64,000 nt of DNA from Candidatus Aminicenantes bacterium. Its GTDB lineage: Bacteria > Acidobacteriota > Aminicenantia > Aminicenantales > UBA8522. This document shows positions 2,678 through 59,231 of the stretch, piece after piece. The notes under the pieces were generated by a model, which was not told the origin of the DNA, made no database searches, and worked only from the letters and a program-made list of their open reading frames with translations. Position 1 is the stretch's first letter. Each line of letters opens with the position of its first letter. The translations under genes and the position numbers were made by a program. Location of the stretch: NCBI GenBank assembly GCA_963764885.1, contig CAVXUH010000007.1, forward strand, positions 634,764-698,763, given 5' to 3'.

Positions 2678-2681
2678 TCTT

Positions 2682-3821: not shown

Positions 3822-4032
3822 CCTCGAGAGCCTGTCGATCAGCCGCTCGAAGGCAGGGCTCTCGGATTGATTGGCGACGATCCAACGGTAAGTTAAGGGT
3901 GATGTTGCTCAATCCGGAATCCTTGCCCGCGCTTGCCCGGCTGGCGCCGGTGTCACGAGGGAACAAATCATAGCACGTTCATGGGAATCGTGCTACGCGG
4001 CTCCGCCGATGCAGTAACGGGAGTCCTTGACC

Positions 4033-5137: not shown

Positions 5138-5206
5138 ACCGGGTTCACATCGCCAGCTATTCTTCCCTTTTTCCCGGCATTTTTCAAGCTCCCGTCGCCC
5201 GTCGCG

Positions 5207-6439: not shown

Positions 6440-6451
6440 GGCCCGCGGCCG

Positions 6452-7558: not shown

Positions 7559-7568
7559 CGGTCTCCCC

Positions 7569-9037: not shown

Positions 9038-9102
9038 CGCGGCCCGCCTCCCGCGCGCGACGGCCTCGGACTCCGCGGCCGTAACTTCTCTTACAAGGGA
9101 AA

Positions 9103-10412: not shown

Positions 10413-10514
10413 TCCTCAGGACCGCCGGTTTCTTTGGCAGTTGGCCCAAAAAAGAAAGGGCGCCCGGAGCATCATTTCCGGGCGCCCGATCCGCTCGATC
10501 AAAAAGCCTAAAGC

Positions 10515-11792: not shown

Positions 11793-12175
11793 TGTCCTCC
11801 TCTTTTTTCGAGATGACGGGAAGTCCGTTGCCATTTATTTAGTCGCGGCCCTCGCTCTTTGGTGAATAGGCCGCCGCCTTGCCGCTTCCCCGATCCTGGA
11901 CTTTAAGACAAGCCTGGCCAGCCTGTCAAGTCAATTATTAAACGGCCCGTTGAGTTATCCGTGATTTGGCCGATCCAGGCCGATCCGGCGGTTAACAGAA
12001 GCTCAGGATGAAGCGCGTTTCCGGGAGGCAGGCCGCCAGGATACCCGGCCCGGACAACAGCACGGAGAGACCAAGAACGCGGAGGCCGCTGCGGGCCGCC
12101 TCGCCCCCGAATCGCGCTCTACAAAGGCGGCGCGATGTTGTAGAATTCCGGCGGAATCCGTCCTGGAGGAAGCTC

Positions 12176-39412: not shown

Positions 39413-41570
39413 ATGCTCCGGAAAACCGCCTCGATGATCCTGTGGCTCCTTTTACTCATCGGCTTCCTGCGGGCGCCGGCCGCCGCCGACGAGGGGATGT
39501 ACCCCATCAGCGATATCCGCAAGCTCGACCTCAAGTCGAAGGGGCTGGTCCTCGACCCCGCCGAGATCACCTCGACAGACAAAAGCCTCATCTTCGCCAT
39601 CGTCAGCGTCGGCGCAACGGGCTCGTTTGTCTCTCCCCAGGGCCTGTTCATCACCAACCATCATGTCGCCTTCGGCGCCGTCCAGGCCGCGAGCACGACA
39701 GACAGAGACTACCTGCGCGACGGGTTCCTGGCACCTACTCCGGCTGACGAGATCCAGGCGCGCGGCATGACGGCCCGGATTACCGAGTCGTTCACGGACG
39801 TCTCGGCCGAGGTGCTGGGCGCGGTCACCCCCGACATGGAGACGACGTCCAGGACCAAGGCCATCGAGAAGCGCACCAAGGAGATCGTCGCCCGTGCCGA
39901 GAAGTCGAACCCCGGCCAGCGCGCCGAGGTGGCGGAGATGTTCATCGGCCGGAGCTACATCCTCTTCATCTATACTTATCTCAAGGACATCCGCCTGGTC
40001 TATGTGCCGCCCCGCGCCATCGGCGAGTTCGGCGGCGAGGACGACAATTGGATGTGGCCGCGTCACACGGGTGATTTCTCGTTCTTGCGCGCCTACGTCG
40101 CCCCGGACGGCACGCCCGCCGACTACGCGCCGCAGAACGTCCCCTTCCGGCCCAAGCGCTTCCTCAGGATCCAGCCCAGGGGCGCCGTCGAGGGCGATTT
40201 CGTTTTCCTCCTGGGCTATCCGGGCCGGACCTACCGGCATTACCCCGCGAGCTACCTGGCCTACGACGAGGAAGTGCGCATGCCCTACATCGCGGACTGG
40301 TATGCCTGGCAGATCGACCTCATGGAGAAGATGGGCGCCGCCGACCGCGGCGTCGCTCTCCTCCACGCCTCGCGCATCAAGGGCCTGGCGAACACGATGA
40401 AGAACTACCGGGGCAAGCTCAAGGGGATGGGGCGCCTCGGCCTGGTCGAGCGGCGGCGCCGGCAGGAAGCCGCGCTCCGGGAATTCATCGACGCCGATGA
40501 GGGGCGGCGCGCCCGCTACGGGAGCGTCCTGGCGGACATCGGTATGATCTATGATGAGACGCGCGCCGCGTTCGCATCCGACATGCTCCTTGACTATCTT
40601 CGCGGCTCCGTGAACCTGCTGAGCTGTGCTTCGACCGTCACCGAAGCATCGCTCGAGCGAGGGAAGCCGGACCTCGACCGCGAGTCGCGGTTCATGGACC
40701 GGAACTACCCGCAGACAAAGCAGCGGCTTCTGCTCGGCCTCCGCAATTATTATGAGCCTACAGACAAGGCGGTCCTGAAGGAGCTCCTCCTCCGGGCCTC
40801 GCGGCTTAAGGAGCCGAACCGGATCAAGGCCCTGGACGAGGTCTTCAAGGGCGATTTTGGGGAGACCGCCATCGACGCCTTTATCCAAAACGCGTACACC
40901 GCCTCAAAATTGGGCGACGTCCGGTACGTCGAGAGCCTGCTCGCCATGACCCCGGACCGGGTGAGCGCCGTGAGCGACCCGTTCCTCGACCTGGCCAAGG
41001 CCCTCCAGCCGGCCGTCGAGGCCAACCGCGAGAGACAGAAGGCGCGGCGGGGCGAGCTCGACCCTCTGTTCGCCCGGCTGAACGAAGTCGAGGAGGCCCA
41101 TCAGGGGAAGAATTTCATTCCCGATGCCAACAGCACGCTGCGGCTGACCTACGGCCGGGTCAAAGGCTATGAGCCGGCGGATGCCGTTTCCTTAAAGCCG
41201 TTCACGACGCTCCGCGGAGTCCTCGAGAAGACGACCGGCCGGGAGCCCTACAATACGCCGGCGGCGCTCCTCGACTTGGCGCGGGCGCGCGACTTCGGCG
41301 GCTTCGAGCACCCGGCCCTTCACGACGTCCCGGTCTGCCTGCTCTACGATGCCGACACGACGGGCGGCAACTCGGGGAGCCCGGTGCTCAACGCCCGGGG
41401 CGAGCTGATCGGCGTGAATTTCGACCGGACCTACGAGGCCACGGTCAACGATTACGCCTGGAGCGAGGACTACCAGCCGGTCGATCGGCGTCGACATCCG
41501 CTACGTGCTCTGGGTCGCCCAGAAATTCGGGAAGGCGGATTTGCTGCTCAAGGAGATCGGGGCGGATTAA
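39413..41570 (+). CDS. S46 family serine peptidase (DPP7/DPP11-like) with apparent frameshift near 41470-41480
   Basis: Signal peptide. Catalytic His (FITNHHVA), Asp and Ser (TTGGNSGSPV). The conserved C-terminal tail ...IGVDIRYVLWVAQKFGKADLLLKEIGAD continues in the +1 frame to a stop at 41570. The ORF-track call (to 41608) ends in the wrong frame. Confidence 0.8.
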
Positions 41571-41604
41571 GCTCGCCCATCGAAGATCCCCGCCCCAAGC
41601 CGGG

Positions 41605-42609
41605 CTAATCCGATTTCAGCCGGGAAATCCTCCGGACATCCAGGGCACATTCCGCTGCGCAGATCACGGCCGCGATGAGGAGAGTCGCGGCTACGCTGAT
41701 GTTGATCCATTTTTCGAGGGCCGCGATCCCCGTGGCCCCGGTTTTCGCCACCGTGAGCTGAGCCCACTGCGCCTTGACCTCGGCCCAGTGCGCCGCAACC
41801 ACGACGGCGAGGATCCCGGCGCTGGCCGCATTGACCGCCGCCCGGATGCCCAGCCGGAGACGCGTCCAGTAGGGCCGAATGAAGTTGACGACGGAGAGGG
41901 CGACGCTCACAAGAGCCAGGGCCGCGATCGGGGCATAATAGCCCTGGCGGAAGCTCTGCCACACGGCGCCGAGGGTCAACCGCCCGGGGGTTGCCCCCGA
42001 GATGACGACCTCCGGAAAACGAAGCGCGCCCTGCCAGAACAACAGAAAGAGCAGGCCGAAGACGATCTCCCCGATCGAAGAGCTTCGGGGTATCCGTCGC
42101 AGATCGCGCACTCGCGGCAGCCGACGCGGGTCCCACTTGTCTTGATCAGCGAACCGCTGCCGGACCCTGTCCGCGATGGCAAACCCAATCGTGATCGTGG
42201 CAAACGTATAGAGCGCAATGCTCCAGAGCGTCCCCAGGGTCTCGAACAACTCGAACCCGGGATGCTGGGCGCGGTAGGAGGGGACGAAGATGACGAGAAC
42301 GGTCCAGACAACCGCCCACGGCACGAGATAGAAAAGCGCGACGAGCTTCAGGACAAAAAGATAAATGGGGAAGAGGGCCGGGCCGATCAGGTGTTGCTGC
42401 GGGAGGTAGCGTTGCGCCACGATGAACGGGCTGCCCCGCCGCTTGAGGATCGCCGCCAGCTCATCGTCGTTGAGCTTGCGGCCCAGCGCGCCTTCCTTTT
42501 CTTCGGCCTCGGAGCGGATGTCTTCGGACAGCTCGGCGACGATGTCCTTTTTCTGGGCCTTGGGAAGCCAGAACCTGACCGCGTGGAGGTATCGGTCGAG
42601 AAGCTCCAT
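41605..42609 (-). CDS. membrane protein with N-terminal HAAS/DUF1700-like signalling domain (PadR partner)
   Basis: MELLDRYLHAVRFWLP...KDIVAELSEDI is the HAAS N-terminal motif. Multiple TM helices follow. Sits immediately downstream of the PadR gene. Confidence 0.65.
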   Translation of the reverse strand: MELLDRYLHAVRFWLPKAQKKDIVAELSEDIRSEAEEKEGALGRKLNDDELAAILKRRGSPFIVAQRYLPQQHLIGPALFPIYLFVLKLVALFYLVPWAVVWTVLVIFVPSYRAQHPGFELFETLGTLWSIALYTFATITIGFAIADRVRQRFADQDKWDPRRLPRVRDLRRIPRSSSIGEIVFGLLFLLFWQGALRFPEVVISGATPGRLTLGAVWQSFRQGYYAPIAALALVSVALSVVNFIRPYWTRLRLGIRAAVNAASAGILAVVVAAHWAEVKAQWAQLTVAKTGATGIAALEKWINISVAATLLIAAVICAAECALDVRRISRLKSD

Positions 42610-42610
42610 G

Positions 42611-42943
42611 TCATGTCTCCTGGAAGATGGCGTTGAGGGAATCGTTGATGCTCCGCCACTCGGCGAGCAGACGCCCGAGGATCGTCTCGCCGTCCGCCGA
42701 CAGGCGGTAGAAGCGTTTGTTGCGCTTGTCCGCTTCGCGCCACTCGCTGATCAGCAAGCCCTGCGTTTCCAGGCGGCGGAGGAGAGGGTAGAGCGTACCC
42801 TCATCGATGGCCAGGCCTTGGTCGGCCAAGCTCTTGCGGAGGGTGTAGCCATACCGCTCGGTGCGCAGCGCCGCGAGGACGGCCAGGATGACGCTCCCCC
42901 GACGCAGCTCGAGACGAAGGTTTTCAAACAGCTCATCGCTCAT
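42611..42943 (-). CDS. PadR family transcriptional regulator
   Basis: ILAVLAALRTERYGYTLRKSL...EGTLYPLLRRLETQGLL, the PadR winged helix. Confidence 0.85.
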   Translation of the reverse strand: MSDELFENLRLELRRGSVILAVLAALRTERYGYTLRKSLADQGLAIDEGTLYPLLRRLETQGLLISEWREADKRNKRFYRLSADGETILGRLLAEWRSINDSLNAIFQET

Positions 42944-42960
42944 TGCAGATTACCTTGTCA

Positions 42961-42998
42961 AACATAGGATGTAAAACATAGTATATGTCGCATGGTAT
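42961..42998. promoter_or_regulatory. AT-rich region with ATGT/ACAT palindromic elements immediately upstream of the PadR gene (candidate autoregulatory operator)
   Basis: atgtaaaacat (42969-42979) and acatagtatatgt (42976-42988), plus the direct repeat aacatag x2. PadR regulators typically bind ATGT-N-ACAT inverted repeats. Confidence 0.3.
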
Positions 42999-43057
42999 TA
43001 AAGTCAAGCACTTCTTTTAGAAGTTTTTTCAGAAAACCTGGCGTTCGGGCGGTATCT

Positions 43058-44602
43058 CTATTCGGGGTCGAGCCCGCTGATCTGGGCCCAGGCGCCGTCG
43101 TTCCAGAGCCAGAGACCGACCGGCCCGAAGTCGACAGCGACCTCGTCCTGGTTGTCGTCGTCGAAATCGCCGGCGATCATGTATTCCGGATTCAGACCGC
43201 TGAGCTGTGTCCAGGCGCCGCCGTCGGCGAGCCACAGCCCGACGGCGCCGAAGTCGCCGACGATGGCATCATCGCCGTCACCGTCGTGGTCGGCCTTGAT
43301 CACGAACTCCGCGGACAAACCGCTGAGCTGGGTCCAGCTAAGACCGTCGTACGACCAGAGACCGATCAGGCCGAAGGCGCCCACGAGCTCATCCTGTCCG
43401 TCCGCGTTGAGGTCGGCAGTCATCAGATAGGCCGCGTTCACCCCGGAGAGCTGTGTCCAGGCGCCGCTTTTCCATTGCCAGAGGCCGGTCGCCCCGAAAT
43501 CGCCGACGAGGTAATGTCCTCCTGTCCAGGCGCCGGACGCCACATACTCGGCGTTCACGCCGCTGAGCTGGCTCCATGAGCCGCCGCTCCACATCCAGAG
43601 CCCGACGGCGCCGAAATCCCCGATGATCTCGTCCCCGCCCATGCCATCGACGTTTGCCGCCGTTACGTACTCGACGTTCACGCCGCTGATCTGGGTCCAG
43701 GCGCCTCCGTTATTAAGCCAGAGCCCGAGGGCCCCGAAATCGCCGACGATCTCGGCCGCTCCGTCAGCGTCGACATCCCCGGCCGCCAGGCCGTCGGCGT
43801 TGACGGCGCTCAACGTATTCCAGGCGCCCGCGTTCCAGAGCCACAGCCCGGCGGTGCCCAGGTCGGCGAGGATCTCGTCGATGCTGTCTCCGTCGACGTC
43901 GGCGGCGGCCAGGCTCTCGGGATTGCTCGGCGCGAGCTGCGCCCAAGAGCTCTGATCAAAGAGCCAGATGCCAGTCGACCCGAAATCCACGGCCAGCTCG
44001 GCGGCCCCGTCGGCGTCAAAATCCCCGACGGCCTGCCTCTGCCGCCAGACCGGGTCCTCGCCGAGCTTGACCAGATAAGCGCAGGTCAGACCCGAATAGG
44101 CACGGATCGGCGTACCCCAGGTTTCCTCGCTCGTGCCCGTCACGAAGACGCCGCCGGCGCCGTCCGCGGCGATGCCCAAGCCCCAATAGTTGATCGCGAG
44201 ATCGGTGCTCCGCATGAAAGCGTGCCAGGCGAGCGCGCCGCCGGTATCGAGCTTGGCCGCAAAGACGTCCGGGCCGTCAAGGCCGTAAAAAGGAAACACC
44301 GGGGTGCCCCATTCCCAGTAGCTGTAGCCGCCGACGAAGACATTGCCGCTCGGGTCGACGGCGATCGACTCGGCCATGTCGAGGTCCCCGCCCCCGAGGA
44401 ACGTGTTCCACTGAAGGACGCCGGCAGAATTCGGGAAAGCAGCATGACCATGAGCCCTCCTCCCGGTTTTCCCCGGAACGTTCCGAATCCGAAGCCAGGA
44501 GTACGGCCATTTCGGGATAACCGGCGCTCTGCTATTGATGTGACTGCAGGATATTAAACGTCCGGGGGCGATGTCAAGCGGTCGACCTAGCCGGTCAAAC
44601 AC
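43058..44602 (-). pseudogene. N-terminally degraded paralog of the SBBP plus 41-aa-blade propeller protein (about 80 percent identical to 51007-52500)
   Basis: C-terminal 450 aa collinear with the 51007..53037 product. No signal peptide. Upstream SBBP-like fragments lie in other frames (ORFs 44140..44451 and 44277..44510). Confidence 0.55.
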
Positions 44603-44789
44603 GACGTCGGCAAGTGGCGTCGCTGGCGGCTCGAATTGGCCGAGGTAGATTCCCGTGGGAGCGCCGAGGCCGCGGTCGATGATTAGACCCGGAGCGAGAG
44701 CGATAGCCGGTTGATCGTTGCGGATAAAAAAAGGGGACGGTTTCCGATCGGAAACCGTCCCCTTGAGATTCTGCGGGGATAATTATGCG

Positions 44790-47700
44790 CTACTGGAGGT
44801 TCATGGCGTTAATCTGGACCGCCGCGGCGTTATTCCACATCCAGGTCCCGAGGCCGGGGAAGCTCATGAGGATTTCGTCGGCGCTGTCGCCGTCCACGTC
44901 CGCGGCCAGCATGATCTCGGGATTCCTGACGTCGATCTGGTTGAACACTCCGGCGGTCTGGAGCCAGACGCCCAGAGCGGCAAAGTCTCCGGCGATCTCA
45001 TCGATGCCGTCGCCGTTGACGTCGCAGCGGATCACCGAATCCACATTAACGCCGCTCAACTGCGTCCAGACATTGGCCTCCCAGGTGAACAGGCCGGTGG
45101 GGCCGAAATCGCCGATGATCTCATCCACCTGGTTCCCGTTCGTGTTCGCGGTGATAATGCTTTCAACGTTCACTCCGCTCAGCTGCGTCCAAGCGGCGTC
45201 CCACCTCCAGAGGCCGACCGCGCCGAAGTCACCCGCCACGTACCCGCCCACGGCCTTCCGGCCGAGGGCCATCGTTTCCACGTTCACGCCGGTCAGGATG
45301 TGCCAGTTGCCGGCGCTCCAGTACCACAAGCCGACGGCGCCGAAATCGCCCACGATCTCAGCCGCGGTCGTTCCGGTGATATCTCCGACCATGACCTGGT
45401 CGGCGTTGACGCCGCTGAGCTGCGTCCAACTGGTCCCGTTGAGCAGCCACAAGCCGACCGCCCCGAAATCCGCCACCAGCTCTTGACTGGCGTCGGCATC
45501 CACGTTGCCCGCGGCCAGGGACTGGACATCGAAACCGCTCAGCTGCGTCCAGACCGTCCCGTCCCGGTGCCACAAGCCGACTATGCCGAAGTCGGCGATG
45601 ATCTCGTCCCGTCCGTCGCCGTTGAGGTCAACCGAGACCAGGGTTTCGGGGTTGAAGGCGGATAGCTGCGACCAGGCGCCGTCGCTGTACAGCCAGAGCC
45701 CGTTCGCCCCGAAATCGACCGCCAGGTCCTTGAGCCCGTCGCCGTCAAAGTCACCCGAGGCGTGCTGGCCGGTCCCGGCGTTGCCCGAGATGACGCTGCC
45801 GGTGGCGATCGTCGCGGCGTTGGAATAAGCGGAGGCGACCGCTTTCGTGGGGAAGCCGATCGACGGTGCCGGGTAGACCGTGGTATCGCCGATCACATTC
45901 GTTCCATACACCCTGTAGTGGTAGGTTGTGGCTCCCTGGACCGTGGTGTCGGAGAAAGTCGTGGCGTCAGCGGCGGCCGCAAACGTCGCGAAGTTAGCCG
46001 TGAAGCCGGCATCCGTGGCCCGTTCGATGGTGAAGGAGGTTTCTGTCAGCGAGTTGTCGGTCCAGGTCAGGTTCACCGCGTTGGCGCCCAATGCCGCTTG
46101 CAGGTTGGACGGCGCTTCGGGGGGGAGCCCCAGGGCGACCGCATGCATCATGTCGTTTTCTTCATGCGCCAGCAGATGGCAGTGCCAGACGTATTCCCAG
46201 CCGAAATTGACCGGATGGTTGACGACCGTCACGGGATTCCCGGCCGGGTCGGCCAGCGCCGGGACGGCATCGAGCACGGTCCCCAGCGGTTCACTCGGGG
46301 CCAAAGGCCGGACTGAGTTGGGAATTTTGAACGGCAAAACAGGAGCGATCGGCCGCAGGGCGACGATCGTGTCCTGAAGCGGGTTGATCTTGATGGTATC
46401 CTTCCAGCCGAGCTCATTGGCGTCGGGTTTCCGGACATTGTTGTCCCAGGCCACCCGGTTGATCAGCTGGACTTCGAAAATGTGGAAGTGGACCGCGTGA
46501 GTGTCGACACCATTCTGGGCGATCTTCCAGAGCTGGGTGCCGTCGCCCAGCACGCCGATGGGCGACCCGTAGATCGAGGGCGTGATGAGCTCCACAGGAG
46601 GATGGACATAATCATAGAGCAGGAAGGTCTGCGCGTTGCCGACGCTCAGAGGCAGATGGAGCCCCAATTTAGCGGCCATCCGTCCGTACTGAGGATCGAA
46701 GACGCCCCCCATCTCATCATGAATGGCCTTCGGTTCGAGCGGCAGCGTCACGGGCGCGGCCGCGCCGATGGGCGTGAAGGTCATCGTGGTGTCCCCGATA
46801 TGGACATACGAGTTTGATGGGAAAATCATGTTGTAGGCGGAATTGTAGACCGCATTCGGGACGACGATCTGATGCTGCGAGGCGGCGAAGGCGCCCGGTG
46901 TCGTGCCGGTCGTGGCGAACGCCGCCTGCAGGGCTGTCAGATTGTACGGGGCCGCGGGGACGCCGGCGGCCACCCGGATCTGCATGATGGTCCGCGTGTT
47001 GGGCCCGAAGCCCGCCACCGTCGAGGGCGCGCCCCCGACATCCGTCAGGTCTTCATTATTGGTGTAATAATCATAGCGCGGGTCCGAAGCCGGAACGGCC
47101 GCCGGCGAGTCGTTGTAGAGGATGAGCGTTTTCCCGGCGTACTGGGAGAAGTCGACGATGACGTCCGCCCTTTCCGCGCTGCCGAGAAAAAGCGAATAGG
47201 TGTTGACATTGCCGAAATCAAATGTCCCCATGTCGCGGTTCCAGTCGACCGGCTGGTTGGGGATGACAACGGGCGCGGGCAGGAAGCCGCCCTCGTGGCC
47301 GATCTGGATCCAGGAGGGGCCCTGGGTGGCCGGATCGGGCACTCCGCCATCCCGGCCGTCGGTCGGCCAGGTCGGCGGGTAGGCGGCGGTCGGGACCGCC
47401 GGGACCATCTTGACTTCGGTGTTGGTCCGGCCGTCGAAAGTCGTCACGGCGGGGTCGGCGATATACATCTGCAGGTTAAAGAACCTGTCGTTGGCGGCGT
47501 TCAGGATGCGGAGGCGGTAGGACTTGGGCTGAACGACGACGTAGGGATAGGCCGTGCCGTTGATGACCGGAGTATCCATGAACCCTTCAGCCACAACTGA
47601 CGGGTTGGGGGTTGAGGGGATGACAGCCGGTTCCAACGGCGCATTGATCGGGTCGTAATAAGGATTGGCGGGAAGCGGATGGTACGGCATGAAGGGGGGG

Positions 47701-49028
47701 AAGAACCAGGCGCTGTAGTGCCACCGGCCCAGGGCGTTTACCCCGTGTTCGTCGGCTGGATTCTGGTAGGGCATGTAAACGTGCGGATACCAGAGTTCCC
47801 CGAACCCGCCGTATCTTGCGGAATCCCAGGTGGGATCCTGGGATTGGAGTTGGGAGGCGAAGGTCCCGAGGCGGTTCGTGACGGGCAGCGTGTTGTCCGG
47901 AACAAAGGTCTTGTCCTGGAGGACCAGCGGGATCTGATCGGCGGGAATGATCCCGGAAGCGACCAGGTCCTGCTCGACGGGATCCTGCAGCAGGTAGGCG
48001 GCGGCCTCGCCGACGTAAACGTTGAGGCGCGTGATCCCGAAAGCATGGTCGTGATAGAACATCAGCCGGGCGCTCTGCTGGTTGGAGTAAAAGAACGTCT
48101 GCGCGCCGGGGCCGGGGTCCGGCATGTCGGGGACATTCCGGACGCTCACGCCTTTGGGATAAGAGGTGCTCTCACCGGCGGGAGTGATCCACTGGTGGGG
48201 CGTTCCGTCGCTGATCCAGGGCGTGTTGCCGCCGTGCAGATGAATGGTGGCCCGATTCTGGGTATACATCTCGGTGCCGCCATTGGGGCCCGTCCCCGCG
48301 CCCATGATGGTCGTATCCACGGGGATGAACAAATTGCCGCCGGCGCCCGTCGCGAGTCTGTTGGTGAACTTGACGCGCACGGGCCGGTCCTTCTGGGCGA
48401 TGATCAGGGGTCCCAGGTAATGCGGCGAACCGACCGGGACGCCGCTATTTTCCTGCACATAGCCCCGCATCTTGACGCCCGCGGCCGGGAGGTCCGAGTG
48501 CATCCGCGCCCGATATTCAACGAGCGCGATCTCGTAATAGTCCGAGCCCGGAAAGGCGGTGGTGTTCGGGGTGGCTATTTGGATATACTGACCGAGGTTA
48601 TTCGCCCCCGCGGGCCCGAGGCCCGCCAGCGAATCGACGAACTTGCGCATTCCGCCGGCGATGGCGGTGATGGCACCCGTCGCGTCCCTGGTGACCCTGG
48701 GGAGCGGGCTGTTGGCGTAGTTCGAGTAGATGCCGAAATAGTCCGGCGTTCCGCCGACCGGCGGGACCACATTGGCGATGGATTTGTTCGCCGAAGCCGA
48801 ATCCCTTGCTGCCTTGGCTCGGGCCGCCGCAGCCTTCAGCTCGGCGAGGGTCGGGCGCTTCATCTTGTTGTTCGCGGCGGTGGCTCGGTACGTCGCCTGC
48901 GCGCCGGCGTCCGACGCCGAAGTCATGGTCGGGGCCGCCTGCGACGGGGCGGGACCCTTATCGAACGCCCCGAGCGCGATAAACGCGAACACCAGGGCGA
49001 CTAATACGATTCTTTTTGATTTGGACAT
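44790..49028 (-). CDS. secreted large multicopper oxidase fused to an FN3 domain and a C-terminal 41-aa-blade beta-propeller
   Basis: Sec signal. Copper-ligand motifs HLHGGNTPW, FYHDHAFG, HAVHFHIFE and HCHLLAHEENDMM. FN3-like segment (NLTWTDNSLTETSF...YHYRVYG). Seven or more DFGxxGLW...WTQLSG blades. GGAGG RBS 8 nt upstream of the ATG. Confidence 0.85.
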   Translation of the reverse strand: MSKSKRIVLVALVFAFIALGAFDKGPAPSQAAPTMTSASDAGAQATYRATAANNKMKRPTLAELKAAAARAKAARDSASANKSIANVVPPVGGTPDYFGIYSNYANSPLPRVTRDATGAITAIAGGMRKFVDSLAGLGPAGANNLGQYIQIATPNTTAFPGSDYYEIALVEYRARMHSDLPAAGVKMRGYVQENSGVPVGSPHYLGPLIIAQKDRPVRVKFTNRLATGAGGNLFIPVDTTIMGAGTGPNGGTEMYTQNRATIHLHGGNTPWISDGTPHQWITPAGESTSYPKGVSVRNVPDMPDPGPGAQTFFYSNQQSARLMFYHDHAFGITRLNVYVGEAAAYLLQDPVEQDLVASGIIPADQIPLVLQDKTFVPDNTLPVTNRLGTFASQLQSQDPTWDSARYGGFGELWYPHVYMPYQNPADEHGVNALGRWHYSAWFFPPFMPYHPLPANPYYDPINAPLEPAVIPSTPNPSVVAEGFMDTPVINGTAYPYVVVQPKSYRLRILNAANDRFFNLQMYIADPAVTTFDGRTNTEVKMVPAVPTAAYPPTWPTDGRDGGVPDPATQGPSWIQIGHEGGFLPAPVVIPNQPVDWNRDMGTFDFGNVNTYSLFLGSAERADVIVDFSQYAGKTLILYNDSPAAVPASDPRYDYYTNNEDLTDVGGAPSTVAGFGPNTRTIMQIRVAAGVPAAPYNLTALQAAFATTGTTPGAFAASQHQIVVPNAVYNSAYNMIFPSNSYVHIGDTTMTFTPIGAAAPVTLPLEPKAIHDEMGGVFDPQYGRMAAKLGLHLPLSVGNAQTFLLYDYVHPPVELITPSIYGSPIGVLGDGTQLWKIAQNGVDTHAVHFHIFEVQLINRVAWDNNVRKPDANELGWKDTIKINPLQDTIVALRPIAPVLPFKIPNSVRPLAPSEPLGTVLDAVPALADPAGNPVTVVNHPVNFGWEYVWHCHLLAHEENDMMHAVALGLPPEAPSNLQAALGANAVNLTWTDNSLTETSFTIERATDAGFTANFATFAAAADATTFSDTTVQGATTYHYRVYGTNVIGDTTVYPAPSIGFPTKAVASAYSNAATIATGSVISGNAGTGQHASGDFDGDGLKDLAVDFGANGLWLYSDGAWSQLSAFNPETLVSVDLNGDGRDEIIADFGIVGLWHRDGTVWTQLSGFDVQSLAAGNVDADASQELVADFGAVGLWLLNGTSWTQLSGVNADQVMVGDITGTTAAEIVGDFGAVGLWYWSAGNWHILTGVNVETMALGRKAVGGYVAGDFGAVGLWRWDAAWTQLSGVNVESIITANTNGNQVDEIIGDFGPTGLFTWEANVWTQLSGVNVDSVIRCDVNGDGIDEIAGDFAALGVWLQTAGVFNQIDVRNPEIMLAADVDGDSADEILMSFPGLGTWMWNNAAAVQINAMNLQ

Positions 49029-49528
49029 GTCTCATTCCTCCTTGATTCCTAAACCCGAAGACAATTCATCGAACTGTCCCCATGCTATAGATTCCTGTGT
49101 AGCCCCTATGGTAGACCCATTATCCTCCTTATTTTCCGGCCTGATTGACAACCGTCGCTTCCTCTTGTAGTTAGTCCTAGCAAAAATCGTGCCAGACCGG
49201 ACATCTCTCTATGTCACATCCTCAAGAACCCGCTCCCCGAGGGATGGGAAAGAATCGCCCGTCCATATAAACCTATTGAGCGAGAGGCACATTCGGGCAT
49301 TTTGGGGCCCCGGGCCATGAAAATCCTTCTCCCGGCCGAGAATCCAGTCAGCCGGGCCTGCCGACGCCGGCCGCGCCCGGCCGCCGGCGCCCCGTCGGCC
49401 ATCAGCCGGGCCGTCACGCTGGCGCTTGTCTTGGGGGATAGGACGTTTCCTGAATGGAAGGACTGCCCGCGCGGCCGCCGGCCGCCCCGTCAGCGGGCCG
49501 GATGGCTGCCGCAAACTTGGCATAGAGA

Positions 49529-50914
49529 TTGCATTCCCAACGAGAGTCTGGGAAAATATCGCCTGTGAAAAGAATTATCTACGCCGGGGTGGCCGTGCTG
49601 CTGATCGTGGCCGGGTTTATCGTCGGCGCTTGGATCACCCGCCGCAATATCACAGGTGGGATGCCAGCCGCCAAGTCCGGCGCGGGCCTCGTCGCCGGTG
49701 AACCCGGTGACGGCGAGGCGGGTGAATTTTCTCCCGGCGCGGTGAATATCAACCCCCGCAAACAGCAGCTCACCGGCATCCGCGTCGCCGAGGTCAAGAA
49801 AGAGACGGCGAACCATTCCCTCCGCGTGCTCGGCCGCGTGGCGGTCGACAACACTCGGCTCTACATCGTGAACGCGACGACGAGAGGCTGGTTCCTGTCT
49901 CTCGCCCCTGTTACACCCGGCGCCATGGTCAAAAAGGGCGAGGTCCTGGGTTCGTTCTACGCGCCGGAGCTGTTGAGAACCGTCCAGACCTATCTCAGCG
50001 ACACTTTCACCCTCGACAGGTTGAAGGGTAACCCGGAAGCGCCCGCTTTCAAGTCGGCCCAGTTTTCCGTCGCCCAGGACAGGGATCTCCTCATCAGCAT
50101 GGGCATGGGCGAGAGGCAGCTCCAGGAGATCGCCAGGACCAGGGAATGGGACCCGCACGTCGACCTCGTCTCGCCCACGACCGGGATCGTCATCGCCTGG
50201 AACGTCTTTCCGGCATTGAAATTCGCCGAGGGCACGGAGTTCTTCCGGATCGCCGACCTGAGCCGCGTCTGGATCCTGCTCGACGTCTTCGAGAACGAAA
50301 CCAAATACCTTAGACCGGGTGTGAAATCGAGTGTGTCGCTGGCCGGCCAGCCGGTCACCTTCGAAGCGGTCGTCAGCAACGTCCTGCCGCTCTTTGACCC
50401 GGTCAGCCGGACGATGAAGGTCCGGCTTGAGGCGAACAACCCGGGGTATGTCCTCCGGCCCGACATGTTTGTGGACGTCGAGCTGCCGCTTCGGCTGCCG
50501 GAGTCGATCGCCGTGCCGGCGGACGCCGTGCTCGACTCGGGCCTTAAAAAGACCGTCTTCGTCGAGCGCAGCGAGGGTTACTTCGAGCCGAGGGAAGTCC
50601 AGACCGGCTGGAAGCTGGGCAACCAGGTCGAGATCGTCAAGGGGCTCGAGCCCGGGGAGCGGATCGTCGTTTCGGGCACTTTTCTGATCGATTCCGAGAG
50701 CCGGATGGAGACGGCCGTCGCCGGGATGCAGGAAAGCCTGGCCCGGGACCCGGTCTGCGGGGTTCCCGTTTCCGTCAAGAAGGCCGAAGACGCCGGCCGG
50801 AAGAGCACGCGCTCGGGGAAAACCTATTATTTTTGTTCCGCTGAGTGCAAGGCCAAGTTCGACGAAAATCCTGAGAAATACGCTGAACTTCCGGCCAATC
50901 CGGCCCCGAAGTGA
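49529..50914 (+). CDS. efflux membrane-fusion protein (CusB/HlyD-like periplasmic adaptor) with C-terminal YHS/TRASH copper-binding domain
   Basis: N-terminal TM anchor, then MFP beta-barrel/lipoyl/alpha-hairpin regions. C-terminal DPVCGVPV...YYFCSAECKAKF (YHS). Start may instead be the GTG near 49565. Confidence 0.8.
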   Translation: MHSQRESGKISPVKRIIYAGVAVLLIVAGFIVGAWITRRNITGGMPAAKSGAGLVAGEPGDGEAGEFSPGAVNINPRKQQLTGIRVAEVKKETANHSLRVLGRVAVDNTRLYIVNATTRGWFLSLAPVTPGAMVKKGEVLGSFYAPELLRTVQTYLSDTFTLDRLKGNPEAPAFKSAQFSVAQDRDLLISMGMGERQLQEIARTREWDPHVDLVSPTTGIVIAWNVFPALKFAEGTEFFRIADLSRVWILLDVFENETKYLRPGVKSSVSLAGQPVTFEAVVSNVLPLFDPVSRTMKVRLEANNPGYVLRPDMFVDVELPLRLPESIAVPADAVLDSGLKKTVFVERSEGYFEPREVQTGWKLGNQVEIVKGLEPGERIVVSGTFLIDSESRMETAVAGMQESLARDPVCGVPVSVKKAEDAGRKSTRSGKTYYFCSAECKAKFDENPEKYAELPANPAPK

Positions 50915-51006
50915 TAATGAACTGCATCAAAGACCTGCCGTTGAGCAGCAGGGTGCATTAGCCGGAGTCCGTTTCGAAAAGTCCAAATAACCATGCACGG
51001 GGCGGG

Positions 51007-53402
51007 CTAATCCGGATTCAGACTGCTGATCTGGGACCAGGCGCCGTCGTTCAAGAGCCAGAGGCCGAGGGAACCGAAGTCGGCAGCGATTTCGTCTTTG
51101 TTGTCCCCGTCCACATCGCCGGCCATCATATAGTCGGGGTTCACGCCGCTGATTTGGGTCCAAGCACCGCCGTCGACCAGCCACAGCCCGGTGCCCCCGA
51201 AATCGCCGACGATGGCGTGATCTCCGTCGCCGTCGGTGTCGGCCTTGATCAGGTACTCCGCGGCCAGGCCGCTGAGCTGCGTCCAGCTAAAACCATCGAA
51301 AGACCAGAGGCCGGTCAGGCCGAAGGCCCCCACGAGCTCATCCTCGCCGTTCCCGTTGAGGTCGGCCGTCATCACGTAGGAGGCGTTGACCCCGGAGAGC
51401 TGCGTCCAGGCGCCGCCCTGCCACAGCCATAGGCCGAGCGCCCCGAAATCGCCGACGAGGTACGTTCCCCCGGCCCAGTCGCCGGATGTCATGTAATCGG
51501 CGTTCACCCCGCTGAGCTGGGTCCAGGCGCCGCCGTTCCACAGCCACAGCCCGACGGCGCCGAAGTCGCCGATGATCTCGTCCCCGTCCAAGCCGTTGAC
51601 GTTGGCGACGGTCACTTGTTCAACATTGACGCCGCTGAGCTGGGTCCAGGCGCCGCCGTTATTGAGCCAGAGGCCGACGGCGCCGAAGTCGCCGACGACC
51701 TCGTCCGCGCCGTCGACATCGACATCCCCGGCCGCCAGGCTGTCGACGTTGACGCCGCTCAACTGATTCCAGGCGCCCGCGTTCCACAGCCACAGCCCTC
51801 CGCCGCCGAGGTCGGCGAGGATCTCGTCGACGCTGTCGCCGTCGACGTCGGCGGCGACCAGGCTCTCGGGGTTGGCCGCCGTGAGCTGCGACCAGGAGCC
51901 GCCGTTATACAGCCAGGCGCCCGTCGCCCCGAAGTCCACGGCGAGCTCGGCGGCCCCGTCGCCGTCAAAATCTCCCACGGTATGCCGCCGCCGCCACACC
52001 GGGTCCTCGCCGAGCTTAACCAGGTAGGCATCGTAGAGGCCAGAAAAGGCGCGGATCGGGGTGCCGAAGGATCCCTCGCTTGTCCCCGTCACGAAGGTGC
52101 CGCCCGCCCCGTCCACGGCAATGCCCATGCCCCAGTAGTTGATCGCCCAATCGGTGCTCGGCAAAAAGGTGTTCCAAGCCAGGGTGCCGCCGCCGTCGAG
52201 CTTGGCCGCGAAGATGTCCGGGCCGTCGAGCCCATAGTAGGGGTTCGCTGGAGTCCCCCAACCCGCGTAGCTGTAGCCGCCCACAAAGACGTTGCCGCTG
52301 CCGTCCACGGCGATCGCCTCGGCCATGTCCATGTCGGCGCCCCCGAGGAAAGAGTTCCACAGGAGGCCGCCGCCCGCGCTGAGCTTGGCAGCGAAACCGT
52401 CCATGGATCCTGCAAAGGGATTGACCGGCGAGCCCCAGGAATCGTTGCTCAGGCCGGCGATATAGATATCCCCCTTGACGTCGGTCTCGATGCGATAGGC
52501 GACGACATTGTTGCCCGGGGAGCCCAGGAAGGTGTTCCACACCGGCGCGCCTCCGCCGTCGAACTTGGCGACGAACGCGTCCGAATTGCCCGTAAAGGGA
52601 CGGATGGGCGAGCCCCAGGACGAGTCGCTCGTGCCCGTGACGAAAGCGCCGCCGCTCTCGTCCGCCGCCACATCCCAGGCGGTAGCGCCTTCCGAGCCTC
52701 CGAAAAACGTGTTCCACTGGAGCGCGCCGGCGCCGTTGAGCCTGGCCAGGAAACTATCGTAATCGGAGAACGGCGCGACCGGCGTCCCCCAGGTGGCCAC
52801 GCTTTCCCCGCAGACATAGATGTTCCCTGAGCCATCAACGGCGATCGCCCCGGGCGTATCGCTCTGGTCGCCCCCGAGGAAGGTGCTCCATTGCAGGCCG
52901 CCGTTGGCGTCGAGCTTGGCGGCCCAGATATCATGCATCCCTCCCTGGAAGGCCCGGACCGGGGAGCCCCAAGTGAGGTTGGCCGTGCCGGCGACATAGA
53001 CGTTGCCGGCCGGATCGAGGGCGATCGAGTGGGACATGTCGTCGCCGTCCCCCCCAGGAACGTGTTCCAGAGCAGGGCGCCGCCCGGGCTCAGCTTGGCG
53101 ACGAAGGCGTCAAAATTGGCGCCGGAGTAAGCGCGGACCGGCGTGCCCCAGGAATAATTGCTGATGCCGACAACGTAGATATTCTTGTTGGCATCCAGGA
53201 CGACGGCGTGGCCATGGCTTTCGATCGCCCCGCCCAGGAACGTATTCCAGATGAGGAATGGGCCGGCCGCCGGCAAGGGGTTGGCCGCCGCCCCGCTGAC
53301 TTGGGCGGCCGAGAGAGTTCCCCCGGTCGGCATGATCATGTCATGGATGGGAAACAGGCACAGAGCGATGCCGATGATGATAGTCCTGGAAAGCGCCTTT
53401 GT
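51007..53402 (-). CDS. secreted SBBP-repeat plus 41-aa-blade beta-propeller protein (1-nt deletion in a C7/G7 run near 53049-53055 splits the reading frame)
   Basis: Signal peptide MTKALSRTIIIGIALCLF. SBBP repeats (WNTFLGG...DxSGNxYVxGxS...WGxP...DAFVAKL) x5, then 10 or more propeller blades. ORFs 52449..53714 and 51007..53037 join if the homopolymer is 8 nt. Confidence 0.7.
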
Positions 53403-53757
53403 CATGATCCCCTCCTCTCCCTCGGCACCTCGCGAGTGCCTTGAACGAAACCGGGCGGCCGCGATGCCGCAGATGACCTCGGTCTTCTGCAAATGGGCAA
53501 TGGCAGAATATAAATCCCTGAGGCGGATGTCAATATGCCTTCCCTGGCAACAGCATCGTGCCGGCTGGGCCGGTCGAAGAGATGGGCGTGATCCGTGTGG
53601 GGACCGAAATTTGCCGATAGAAAAATGCCAACACGATCGAAGCGTGGTGATCTCAACAACCGACAATGAGATGGCCACGTCCCCGTGGGAGACTCGCAAT
53701 GACATATAAGTCAACGACTTCTGTTTCTATCGGCAATCTTGGGCGGGGAGGGGGCGA

Positions 53758-53786
53758 TTGACAAACGGTTTTTCCCGCCCTATTCT
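53758..53786 (+). promoter_or_regulatory. candidate sigma70 promoter (TTGACA-17-TATTCT) upstream of the 53930 gene
   Basis: ttgaca at 53758-53763, a 17-nt spacer and tattct at 53781-53786. Confidence 0.35.
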
Positions 53787-53929
53787 CTGGGCATCCGCCG
53801 CGGCATATAACGGCGCCCCACACGTCCCGATAACTTTGCCGATGCCGCAGAGAAAGCCTGCCTTCGGCGGCGCCGCGGTGTTATGAAATGACCGTTGACC
53901 GTCATCCTTGGAGACACTGAAGACAGAAG

Positions 53930-54403
53930 ATGAACTCTCAGCGCCTTCTTTGCGGCATAGTCATGATTGCCCTGGCCGGCGCGGGGAGGGCGGCGGCCGG
54001 CCCTCCGGACTTCTCGGGCACCTGGGCCCTGAACGCCTACCGGAGCGAGCTCGCCGGCGAGCGGCCGCCCCAGAGCAAGGTGCAGCGGGTCGAGCACAAA
54101 GGGACCGAACTTGTCGTTACGATCGATGAGATCAACGAGCGGGGGACGGTACACGGTGTTGCCCGCTACACGACCGACGGTCAGGATGCCGTCAACGATG
54201 TGCTGGGCAACCCGATGACCTCGGCCATCAGCTGGGATGGCGCAGTCATGGTCATGCGGACGTGGGGCAAGTTCGGCAACACGGACATTATGCTCATCGA
54301 CAAGTGGGCGCTTTCCCCCGATGGCAAGACGCTGACCATCGCCCGCCAGTTCCAGGGTCAGGGGCGGGCCGTCGACCAGACGCTTGTTTTTGACCGCCAG
54401 TGA
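53930..54403 (+). CDS. small secreted hypothetical protein
   Basis: Signal peptide (LLCGIVMIALAGAGRAAAG). 157 aa, beta-rich. A sigma70-like promoter candidate lies upstream. Confidence 0.5.
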   Translation: MNSQRLLCGIVMIALAGAGRAAAGPPDFSGTWALNAYRSELAGERPPQSKVQRVEHKGTELVVTIDEINERGTVHGVARYTTDGQDAVNDVLGNPMTSAISWDGAVMVMRTWGKFGNTDIMLIDKWALSPDGKTLTIARQFQGQGRAVDQTLVFDRQ

Positions 54404-54504
54404 ACGGGCCGGCGCGACTTATTCCCTTGCCCCGCTGAAGTGATCACCGTTCGCCGCCGTGAAAACGGCCGTGCTGAAGCCTGTCTCGGGGAATAAAAAG
54501 AATT

Positions 54505-54532
54505 GGGGAATTGATATCCTGTCACCAATTGA
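54505..54532. repeat. third copy of the motif GGGGAATTGATA(A/T)CCTGTCACCAATT, abutting the stop codon of the SSS transporter gene
   Basis: ggggaattgatatcctgtcaccaattga versus 18425-18452 ggggaattgataacctgtcaccaattcg. On the minus strand it is followed by a T-run (CCCCAATTCTTTTTATT). Confidence 0.6.
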
Positions 54533-56158
54533 TCAGCGCATCCACCAGTAGATGCCGATGGTGATGAGACTGAGGACGGCGAGCTGAAGCCGCCAATCTT
54601 TCCAGCCCTCGAACGACTCCCATTTGGCCTTCCAGTTGAAAGTTGTCGTCTCGAGCTTCTCGGGCGGCGATTTTTTGGTGAACGCCGAAACCAGGAACAG
54701 CACGGCGATGATGATGAGCGTCCCCCACACGCCGCGCCAGGTGTAATTCTCGGTCATTGTGTAGTGCAGGAATGGGAAGGCGGCTTTCGCCGCCGCGGGC
54801 CCGCTGATCATGCCGATGATCTGGTCGGTGACGTAGAGAGCGGCCACGCCGAACCCGGCCACGAACGAGGCCATCGCGCCCGCCACGGTCACCCTTTTGC
54901 TCGTGACGCCGAAGAAAATGCCGGGGAAGAGCGGCATGACGAGGAACATCGACATGGCCTGGAGGTACTTATACAGGCCTTCCTGGTTCTTGTAGACGAG
55001 ATAGGCGGCGCTGATGCCCAGGCAGGTGATAACGGCGATCGCCACCCGGCCCCAGAAGACCTGGGCTTTCTCCGATGTCTTCGGCCGCGACCGCACGATG
55101 AAGTCCTTGACCACAAGGGTCGAGGTCGAGTTCATGACCGAAAGGATCGACGAGATGAGGGCCGCCAGGAGCGCCGCCAGGACCATCCCCCGCAGGCCGG
55201 ACGGCAGGATGTTGTTGAGAAAGGTGATGAAGGTCGTCTTGGGCTCCTGGCCCGGATAGAGCGCCGCGCAGATCACGCCGGGCATGGCGAAGATGAACAC
55301 CGGCAGGAGCTTGAGCAGGGTCGAGAACATCGCCCCCCAGCGGGCCTGCCTGAGGTTCGGGGCGCCCAGCAGCCGTTGGACGTTCACTTGGTCCATACCC
55401 CAATAAAAAGTGCCGGCGGCGAACGAGGTGATGATGACGCCCCAGAACGGGAAATTCGGGTCGGTCACCGGCTTGGCGATGTGCATCATCTCCGGGACTT
55501 TAGCCTGGAGGCCCGCCCAGCCGCCGGCCTTGACCAGGCCGATGACGAACCCGGCGCCCGATCCGACGACCATGATCAGCGTCTGGATGGAATCGGTGTA
55601 GGCCACGGCGGCGAACCCGCCGATGATGGTGACCACGGCGCAGATGATCCCCAGGCCGATGACGACCTTCATGACCCCCCAGCCGACCAGGCTGTTGAGG
55701 ACGAGCGCCCCTGCGAAAAGGCAGAAGGCCATCTTGGTCATGATCGAGATAACGAGCATCAGCCCCGAAAAAAACGAGCGGGCCGCGCGGTTGAACCGGA
55801 GCTCAAGGAACCCCGGAATGGTGAAGACCTTGTTTTTTATGTACTGGGGAAGGAGGAAGGCGCAGGTCATCCCGAGCGTGATGGCCGTCGTCAGCTCGAC
55901 CGACGAGGCGCTGATGCCGTAGCGGTAGGCATCCCCGGAGAGGCCGACCAGGTGCTCGGCGCCGATGTTCGTCGCGAACAGCGACGCCCCGACGATCGGC
56001 CAGGCCAGGCGGCGGCCCGCCAGGAAAAACGAGCTCGAATCGGCCGACGACCGCATCCGGGCCGAGATGTAGAGACCGGCGGCGAGGCTGATGGCGATCA
56101 GGGCGATGCAGATCGCCCAGTCCCAGCCGGTCAGTGAGAGGCGGGCGCTGAAATCCAT
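54533..56158 (-). CDS. sodium:solute symporter family (SSS/SLC5) transporter
   Basis: 13-14 TM helices. SSS signature region FFLAGRRLAWPIVGASLFATNIGAEHLVGLSG. Confidence 0.85.
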   Translation of the reverse strand: MDFSARLSLTGWDWAICIALIAISLAAGLYISARMRSSADSSSFFLAGRRLAWPIVGASLFATNIGAEHLVGLSGDAYRYGISASSVELTTAITLGMTCAFLLPQYIKNKVFTIPGFLELRFNRAARSFFSGLMLVISIMTKMAFCLFAGALVLNSLVGWGVMKVVIGLGIICAVVTIIGGFAAVAYTDSIQTLIMVVGSGAGFVIGLVKAGGWAGLQAKVPEMMHIAKPVTDPNFPFWGVIITSFAAGTFYWGMDQVNVQRLLGAPNLRQARWGAMFSTLLKLLPVFIFAMPGVICAALYPGQEPKTTFITFLNNILPSGLRGMVLAALLAALISSILSVMNSTSTLVVKDFIVRSRPKTSEKAQVFWGRVAIAVITCLGISAAYLVYKNQEGLYKYLQAMSMFLVMPLFPGIFFGVTSKRVTVAGAMASFVAGFGVAALYVTDQIIGMISGPAAAKAAFPFLHYTMTENYTWRGVWGTLIIIAVLFLVSAFTKKSPPEKLETTTFNWKAKWESFEGWKDWRLQLAVLSLITIGIYWWMR

Positions 56159-56329: not shown

Positions 56330-57512
56330 CTAAACCCCCATCTCCTCGAGCCGCTGCCAGCAGTACCACTGCATCCGCGGCAGGTGGAAGAAGCCCTTCC
56401 ACATGTTGCCCTTGAGGGTCGTCGAGACGCTGCCGTCGCGGTGCAGGTAGCCGAACCATTCGCCGTGGATGGGATCGGGGAAATGCGCATGCGCCCAGTC
56501 GTGGACGGCCTGGTGCCAGCGGGCGTACTTCTCGTCGCCCGTGAGCTGGTAGGCCAGGAGCGAGCCGATGATCGCCTCGTTGTGCGGCCACCAGAACTTC
56601 ATGTCGTGCCAGTACTCGGTCGCGGGCCGCCCTTTCGCGTCGCGGAAGTAGAAGAGACCGCCGCACTCGCGGTCCCAGCCGAGCTCCATCGACCAGTCGA
56701 TGATCTTCGTGCCGATGTCGATCAGGCGGCGGTTGCCGTTCCGGAGGCGCGCCTCCTCGAGGATGAACCAGCCGACCTCGATGGCGTGGCCCGGCAGCAC
56801 GAGGCGGCCGTCGAAGTTGTCCAGGAACTCGCCCTTGGGGCCCGACAGTCTCGAGGACGCACTTGAACTCGGGCTTCATGAAGTCGCGCTCGACCTCGGC
56901 GATGTTGCGGTCGATGACCTCGTCGAGGAGGGGGTCGGGAACGGCTTTCCGGAGCTCCTGGGCCGTCACGAGCAGGCACATCGGGATCGACAGGCCCTTC
57001 ATCGGCCGGACCTCGGGGTTGGTCTTCGGCGGGAGGGCGCCCGGGGTTTCGAGGTAGTTGAGGACGCGCTTGAAGAGGTCGAGCGCCTCTTTTTTCGCGC
57101 CGTCGTCCCGGGCGGCCTGCCCGTAGGCGGCCAGGGCGATGATGGCGAAGATCTCGGAGAAAATATAGCGGCGCTTGCGGAGCGGCCGGCCCTCGCGGGT
57201 CAGGCTGAAGAACATCCGGCCGTCCGTGTCGAAGCACCGCTCGTGGAGGAAATCGACGCCGTGGCGGGCGAGGCTGAGCCACTCCTCTTTGCGCTCCACG
57301 GTGTTGTAGAGGGTGGCCAGCATCCAGGTGAAGCGCCCCTGGAACCAGACGGACTTGTCGGTCTGGAGGAGGGAGCCGTCGCGGTCGAAGCAGGTCAGGA
57401 ACCCGCCGTGCTCCTCGTCCACCGAGCGCGGGAACCAGAAGGGGATGGTGTCGCGAAGCAACCCGTCACGATAGACATCGCGCAGCCGTTTTCGTTCCTC
57501 GGGCGTCCTCAT
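56330..57512 (-). CDS. N-acylglucosamine 2-epimerase (AGE) family sugar epimerase/isomerase (frameshift in a G4/C4 run near 56836)
   Basis: (alpha/alpha)6-barrel AGE motifs. N-terminal part (ORF 56241..57512 up to ...FMKPEFKCVLETVGPQG) and C-terminal part (ORF 56330..56800, GEFLDNFDGRLVLPGHAIEVGWF...) join if one C is removed from cccc. Confidence 0.75.
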
Positions 57513-58980: not shown

Positions 58981-59231
58981 GGGCGTTTCTCCTTCGTTCT
59001 CTGAACAGGCCTTCCGGCCACGGCGGCCAGAATATGGCCTCGCGCCCAGCGCTGTCAAGTTGAATCGAGGGCAATCTCTTTTCAGGTGATGCCAGCGAGA
59101 ACAAAGTGGGGTGGCGCGGCGCCAGCCCCTGCGCGCCCGGAGCCCCCGAGAAGGGCCGGATGGGGATAGCGCCCCGAAGCCCCCCGTAGCGGAGGGGGAC
59201 CGGCGGGAAGCGGAGTCTTCGGAGCGACTAT

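Follow-up and report, generated by a model that had tools for sequence, protein, structure and literature searches.

The closest described relatives of the oxidase treated here are OmpB and OmpC of Geobacter sulfurreducens and MofA of Leptothrix discophora, large (>1000 aa) secreted multicopper oxidases (MCOs) with CotA-like copper motifs and an FN3-type segment. The published ompB/mofA clusters show a layout of FKBP isomerase, SCO1/SenC and a MofC-like protein, and for SCO1/SenC in the Geobacter ompB clusters a role in copper supply has been proposed (PMC5566968). Large oxidases of this type occur widely among anaerobic bacteria and archaea; what they do is unclear even in Geobacter. Escherichia coli also combines an oxidase with copper efflux in one response, as copper induces both the periplasmic cuprous oxidase CueO and the copper/silver efflux system CusCFBA. 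The adaptor of this pump, CusB, binds Cu(I) by an N-terminal methionine cluster. Copper-trafficking proteins contain YHS and TRASH domains as metal-binding modules (PMC5328820). Here we describe a stretch of 64,000 nt (referred to as the window) from a Candidatus Aminicenantes bacterium (assembly GCA_963764885.1, contig CAVXUH010000007.1, positions 634,764 to 698,763), in which the gene for a large MCO and the gene for a CusB/CzcB-type periplasmic adaptor (membrane fusion protein, MFP) with a YHS tail are arranged divergently.

Four genes follow each other in the order truncated propeller gene (minus strand), MCO with propeller tail (minus), MFP-YHS (plus) and SBBP-propeller gene (minus). This order and the domain calls had been proposed in a first-pass annotation, and the listing of open reading frames (ORFs) together with Pfam bore them out. 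The truncated gene is called copy A and its relative beyond the adaptor copy B in the following (Table 1). In our reading, to which we assign a probability of about 0.5, the functional unit is the divergent pair of an OmpB/MofA-type oxidase and an orphan YHS adaptor, preceded by sigma-54 sites and engaged in copper handling, whereas copy A is a broken insertion outside this system.

Table 1. Features of the oxidase-adaptor locus and its flanks; positions refer to the window.
Feature	Position	Strand	Basis or remark
Lineage-specific insertion block	41565..44721	.	HAAS membrane protein, PadR regulator and copy A
HAAS-domain multi-pass membrane protein, 334 aa	41605-42609	-	Pfam/NCBIfam matches
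PadR-family regulator, 110 aa	42611-42943	-	Pfam/NCBIfam matches
Copy A	43058..44451	-	internally deleted SBBP/FG-GAP two-propeller gene, probably dead
Copy A leader; sigma-70-like promoter kept (TTGACA at 44577, 18-nt spacer, TATCCT)	44452..44721	-	right end of 3.16-kb insertion
Intrinsic terminator directly past the MCO stop, perfect hairpin with 15-bp stem, then T7	44731..44764	-	conserved in L002 and L007, with compensatory changes
Multicopper oxidase, probable OmpB/MofA family, 1412 aa	44790..49028	-	ORF listing, Pfam, alignments
Sigma-54 -24/-12 site TGGCACGATTTTTGCT, facing MCO	49179..49194	-	equivalents in L001, L002, L086, L165
Sigma-54 -24/-12 site TGGCATAGAGATTGCA, facing MFP	49518..49533	+	kept in all five aligned loci, two spacer positions vary
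Membrane-anchored CusB/CzcB-type periplasmic adaptor (MFP), 449 aa, C-terminal YHS	49565..50914	+	Pfam, TIGR01730
Copy B, secreted two-propeller protein, SBBP (7 blades) and FG-GAP-like (8 blades)	51007..53405	-	ORFs, Pfam, ortholog model

The oxidase is composed of a Sec-type signal peptide, the MCO core, an FN3-like segment and eight C-terminal 41-aa FG-GAP-like repeats. All four copper motifs, defined as HxH, HxH, HxxHxH and HCHxxxHxxxxM, are present (HLHGG, YHDHA, HAVHFH and WHCHLLAHEENDMM) and could be aligned with the CotA-like oxidase 7z5p; judged by these residues, the enzyme looks catalytically intact. The ratio of nonsynonymous to synonymous substitution rates (dN/dS) is 0.16-0.26 and indicates purifying selection. 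The family is large, with more than 6000 matches; anaerobic bacteria and archaea account for many of these, and FN3 domains occur in many. Whereas many relatives carry PF00041 (fn3), the window protein has no fn3 match at E<=0.01, and its FN3-like segment is readable at approximately residues 970-1060. Oxidases from Geobacteraceae metagenome-assembled genomes (MAGs), rather than GSU1394 or MofA themselves, are 44-48% identical to it over approximately 950 residues (~94-1050). At one of these Geobacteraceae loci (L041) the oxidase is preceded by genes for an FKBP isomerase, SCO1/SenC and a MofC-like protein, as in the published clusters. Identity and neighbours together make the window protein a probable member of the OmpB/MofA family. 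In contrast to the described members, it has no mofB (peptidyl-prolyl isomerase), mofC (cytochrome) or SCO1/SenC neighbours within the window and is partnered by a YHS-tailed efflux adaptor instead; furthermore, its C-terminal tail is an 8-blade FG-GAP-like propeller and its host an Aminicenantes bacterium, a group for which we found nothing in the literature in connection with a multicopper oxidase. It differs also from CueO, which is small, Tat-exported and equipped with a methionine-rich loop.

The adaptor, which is anchored in the inner membrane, shows the domains HlyD_D23 (2.3e-47) and YHS (3.1e-14) in Pfam. It scores 96.2 bits with TIGR01730 (cutoff 94.9), the best specific models being CzcB/NccB and CusB. 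The barrel-sandwich of HlyD_D23 type with its beta-barrel and a metal-binding extension are thus features which it has in common with CusB of the E. coli CusCFBA system and with CzcB-type adaptors. Unlike CusB, it has no adjacent cusA, cusC or cusF and lacks the N-terminal methionine triad; copper binding would presumably occur via the C-terminal YHS domain, and the gene has a sigma-54 site and is divergent from an oxidase gene. As the start codon we take GTG 49565 and not TTG 49529, because the latter is overlapped by the sigma-54 site; the GTG also aligns with the start codon in the related locus L001. The gene is under purifying selection (dN/dS 0.18). The literature yielded nothing on a YHS domain joined to a membrane fusion protein.

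The two genes diverge from a common intergenic region, which the first-pass annotation had regarded as shared regulatory sequence. This view is upheld; the same divergent pair recurs in L001/L009, L002, L086, L165 and on the P0002 contig. Sigma-54 sites were defined as -24/-12 elements of the type TGGCAC-N5-TTGC located upstream of a gene on the correct strand. The pattern TGGCAYR-N4-TTGCW has exactly two matches in 64 kb, with 0.03 expected by chance, and both lie in this region, facing outward and each on the correct strand for its gene. They are conserved in four relatives and form two conserved blocks in a five-locus alignment of the intergenic region. A further conserved block between the two promoters, GGAAARCGTCC ... 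GACAAT, is a candidate activator site. The regulation suggested earlier was of the CueR/CsoR type; none was found, and the clear signals are the two sigma-54 sites. The E. coli genes for CueO and CusCFBA are different in this respect as well, being unlinked, under control of CueR and CusRS and transcribed from sigma-70 promoters. The region had also been described as AT-richer, which is correct, but only slightly so (58% GC versus ~64%). A scan of 41000-54600 with Rfam gave sub-threshold noise only.

Compared to L001, L086 and L165 the segment 49200-49515 is rearranged in the window. From the MFP-side sigma-54 site to the start of the MFP gene approximately 80 nt are missing, the MCO-side site is approximately 100 nt closer to the MCO gene, and the segment contains a GC-rich stretch full of GCCGGC repeats.

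The relatives differ in whether the pair is present. Identity of the MCO is 77% in L001/L009, 74% in L002, 84% for the P0002 contig and, in the core, 82% for L086, the sole new close relative that a metagenome scan with the oxidase added. L007/L008 have lost the initial 2.3 kb of the MCO gene together with the intergenic region and parts of the MFP gene; the deletion endpoints lie within both genes, and the ortholog of copy B is intact. What is left in both (positions 12088-14721 of L007) is a rest of the MCO split between two ORFs and, from the MFP, 85 aa with the YHS part. As the same decayed locus was recovered from two independent metagenomes, the loss appears to be fixed in this lineage. 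From L004-L006 MCO and MFP are both absent.

More distant loci show the same two families in a different setting. In a Syntrophobacteraceae MAG (L076, positions 2000-12800) a small MCO, an MFP-YHS, an RND pump and a large MCO are found together, and in an Acidobacteriota MAG (L037, 2100-19800) a small MCO, an MFP, a large FN3-bearing MCO, another MFP, an RND pump and an FKBP isomerase. In two further loci (L072 and L069) an MFP-YHS and an RND pump are located at most 10 kb from the oxidase. As in the window, the oxidase of L037 and L076 adjoins an adaptor of the same YHS-tailed family (43-58% identity); yet these cus-like operons are one-stranded and include an RND pump and a second small oxidase (L037 also the FKBP isomerase), whereas the window pair is pump-less and divergent. 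The one or two adaptors in L037 and L076 carry HMBD and multiple YHS domains. Given this co-occurrence of YHS adaptors, RND pumps and large MCOs, the Aminicenantes pair looks like a reduced version of oxidase-containing copper-efflux operons from other phyla, in which the large oxidase stands among YHS-tailed adaptors and an RND pump.

For the divergent pair the following mode of action can be proposed. To judge from the paired sigma-54 sites, one unlinked enhancer-binding activator would turn on both genes, most likely upon copper or a related envelope signal. The adaptor would then bind Cu(I) in the periplasm and cooperate with an RND pump and an outer-membrane channel encoded elsewhere, and the oxidase would act at the cell surface on copper or some other reduced metal. 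From the gene context we infer that efflux or copper supply is coupled to the surface oxidase. The YHS-adaptor neighbours in several phyla, the paired sigma-54 sites and the joint loss provide a testable lead, namely that large oxidases belong to envelope copper handling and not purely to iron/manganese redox.

Several observations weigh against this reading. Among the ORFs scanned in the 64-kb window there is no RND pump (ACR_tran), no outer-membrane factor, no sigma-54 activator (Sigma54_activat) and no CueR or CsoR, so that we can only infer the partner of the adaptor and the inducing signal. The N-terminal methionine cluster of CusB is missing, as the periplasmic N-terminal segment of the adaptor holds a single methionine. 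In L001 the middle cysteine of the YHS domain reads as serine, which may be unreal in this error-prone assembly. A YHS-tailed adaptor within 10 kb was found for just 4 of approximately 150 more distant oxidase loci. Furthermore, the oxidase is O2-dependent in a presumed anaerobe and has no obvious substrate. Finally, the frameshifts of copies A and B are possibly sequencing errors, the neighbouring S46 peptidase gene being affected by an indel, too.

The absence of a pump from the window can be read in another way, which we regard as possible although clearly less probable. The orphan adaptor may have been repurposed, its YHS tail collecting periplasmic Cu(I) and passing it to the Sec-exported apo-oxidase, with no pump being served. 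The signal peptide of the oxidase, of Sec and not of Tat type, implies that copper is loaded outside the cytoplasm, and in Geobacter-type clusters a copper chaperone occupies the equivalent place (PMC5566968). In at least three species the adaptor gene is intact with no pump gene beside it, and in two more an incomplete adaptor gene adjoins the oxidase; the gene is constrained (dN/dS 0.18), lost together with the oxidase, and sigma-54 promoter sites stand before both genes. However, every more distant homologue of the adaptor that we examined adjoins an RND pump, suggesting ordinary efflux, no precedent for an adaptor as chaperone was found in the literature, and the pump may be encoded elsewhere in the genome. 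In its most far-reaching version the idea is more doubtful still: by means of its YHS domain the pump-less adaptor would be dedicated to a giant surface OmpB/MofA-type oxidase as copper supplier or partner, and one sigma-54 activator would switch on both. If true, the uncultured phylum Aminicenantes would possess an extracellular oxidase module of two genes that has not been described before.

The second part of our reading, that copy A stands outside the oxidase-adaptor system, is based on its relation to copy B and to the corresponding loci in other genomes. The first-pass annotation had noted about 80% nucleotide identity between the two over about 1.4 kb; by blastn, 43058-44423 and 51007-52372 are 81.5% identical over 1366 nt with zero gaps, that is, they are mismatched at 253 positions. 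The similarity begins precisely at the stop codons of both genes. Internal 123-nt repeats matched out of register reach merely 62-75% identity, therefore the similarity reflects true paralogy beyond that of the repeats. The proteins are 76% identical (pairwise dN/dS 0.25). An old duplication had been suggested from this similarity, possibly in tandem. The paralogy is indeed old and no repeat artefact, but copy A is not a tandem duplicate of copy B, since it is as close to the B orthologs of three other species (L001, L004 and L007) as to copy B itself (81-85% throughout). These orthologs are 80-85% identical to one another, and copy B is no closer to them than to copy A. In a neighbour-joining tree copy A is placed weakly near P0121/P0122 (combined bootstrap support 57%), and we do not claim a specific donor lineage.

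Copy A retains its promoter, a GGAGG ribosome-binding site, ATG 44451 and approximately nine codons, after which the sequence jumps to SBBP blade 6 of 7. What remains are SBBP blades 6-7 and the 8-blade FG-GAP-like propeller, without a signal peptide. The junction is out of frame: ATG 44451 and the 455-codon propeller ORF are in different frames, which leaves copy A with no start that could be used, and the open frame runs by chance up to GTG 44602 (ORF 43058-44602, minus strand). The leader (44424-44721) aligns with the 5' ends of the full-length P0122 and P0121 genes with scores of 54 and 33, compared to a shuffle maximum of 24. Because copy A matches the full-length orthologs in leader, ribosome-binding site, ATG and first codons and then changes frame at the junction, it is, by these alignments, a deletion derivative, a paralog minus approximately 1.1 kb coding for signal peptide and blades 1-5. 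The branch-specific dN/dS values, 0.27 for copy A and 0.23 for copy B, indicate that copy A was functional during most of its history and became disabled recently.

The 3.16-kb block that contains copy A is missing from L002, L007/L008 and L165, in which nothing separates the MCO terminator from the stop codon of the S46 peptidase gene; it is missing also from L001, together with the peptidase gene. From this absence it follows that copy A arrived by insertion, along with the PadR/HAAS pair; the site of insertion lies between the terminator of the oxidase gene and the S46 gene, and copy A is no part of the oxidase-adaptor system. The hexamer ATCCGC is found at both insertion junctions. PadR and HAAS homologues were detected in none of the 165 fetched loci, and a metagenome scan with copy A gave no matches. 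The PadR/HAAS pair has its own sigma-70-like promoter at 43007-42980.

That copy A is nevertheless a working gene, the junction being miscalled or translation starting or shifting elsewhere, appears improbable to us. The 455-codon frame is fully open, promoter and ribosome-binding site are kept, the branch dN/dS is close to that of copy B, and further indels are present in the assembly. Yet even a frame-restored product would be a signal-less protein of two SBBP blades and the 8-blade propeller; of the seven blades in the first propeller five would be gone. The truncated form, queried with the N-terminal 119 residues of the A frame, had no match in a database of 5.8 billion protein sequences, and a search of a database which contains the MCO and B proteins of this contig gave no protein identical to A.

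Still less can be said for the idea of the first-pass annotation that MCO and MFP form a cassette bracketed by direct-repeat paralogs which drive its excision or amplification, and that the three propeller proteins make up one extracellular oxidase system with a common target. The repeats are real, direct and 6.4 kb apart, presence of the pair varies among relatives, and copy B is its constant neighbour. However, the bracket dissolves with the finding that copy A lies in an insertion; it is frame-broken and seen in this lineage only. Excision or amplification through the repeats is unlikely, as at 81.5% identity the longest identical run is 24 nt, and the deletions in L007/L008 end inside MCO and MFP and not in the repeats. 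Thus, there are no near-identical direct repeats fit for homologous recombination, and no recombined or amplified state, that is, no variant locus with a junction in the A/B repeats, was found among the relatives. The bracket is a matter of ordinary gene-family turnover with little wider significance. A mobile-element reading was rejected, since neither integrase nor transposase was found among the flanking ORFs scanned.

The common target or scaffold fares no better, because the propeller turns out to be a widely reused module. In this phylum the 8x41-aa module occurs on proteins with unrelated N-terminal parts, for example autotransporter-type repeats or a C1 peptidase, and the L086 oxidase (82% core identity) carries a different propeller type, which indicates that the C-terminal propeller was swapped between close relatives. 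The module therefore appears as a reusable tail and gives no evidence of a common target; perhaps it serves surface attachment. In L086 the oxidase tail (4400-5394) consists of another repeat type (TWDGQGVFYRDS...-like, ~45 aa) in place of the 41-aa module. Two further window ORFs, 8853-10412 (plus) and 10515-11834 (minus), have the FG-GAP-like 41-aa module without a Pfam match and with 27-36% identity to that of copy B, making five module copies in 64 kb.

A chimeric mis-assembly from repeated propeller sequences, for which the many internal 123-nt and ~180-nt repeats and the indel errors of a long-read MAG assembly could be cited, can practically be dismissed, as two copies with 253 differences in 1366 positions cannot stem from collapsing or duplicating the reads of a single locus, collinearity of the flanks extends to four independent assemblies, the insertion junctions lie in unique sequence between terminator and stop codon, and the deletion junction inside copy A is out of register with every repeat.

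Copy B had been taken for a full-length SBBP-propeller gene. It is the full-length relative of copy A, but its frame is broken in a G7 run at 53049-53055, and its extent had to be revised to that in Table 1; with one extra G it encodes 799 aa, the length of the ortholog P0123, and the frameshift is probably a sequencing error. In the relatives copy B follows beyond the MFP wherever the contig extends that far. By this synteny copy B is the constant neighbour of the oxidase-adaptor pair, and its family is expanded in this lineage. Copy B and its orthologs share a two-propeller architecture of signal peptide, seven SBBP blades and eight 41-aa FG-GAP-like blades. An AlphaFold model of the ortholog P0121 (mean predicted local distance difference test score 84) displays a signal helix, a disordered linker, the 7-blade SBBP propeller and the 8-blade second propeller. 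The top structural match of the first propeller in the PDB is the CylK beta-propeller domain (7fh6; E 3e-24, 24% identity over ~445 alignment columns), an identity that says nothing on a shared activity. Copy B also has a sub-threshold match to the NCBIfam LipL53 model, built for Leptospira SBBP lipoproteins of LipL53 type. Compared to CylK and LipL53, the second, 8-blade FG-GAP-like propeller is an addition in the B family. At 53330-53405 and in the orthologs a conserved cysteine closes the hydrophobic core of the signal peptide (IALC, VVTC, AVLC). Judged from this position, these proteins may be lipoproteins with an atypical lipobox.

Two other genes of the window show similar irregularities. 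Compared with L007, the S46 peptidase gene (39413-41608) contains an additional C (GACTACCAGCC versus GACTACAGCC, within 41470-41610), probably an assembly indel, by which the last ~35 codons are frame-shifted; in the correct frame the stop would be near 41570 and the protein 717 aa long, as in relatives. The sugar transporter ORF 57509-59021 (366 aa) matches positions 104-452 of the Sugar_tr profile only, and its orthologs measure 489-503 aa; this shortening is probably another assembly frameshift.

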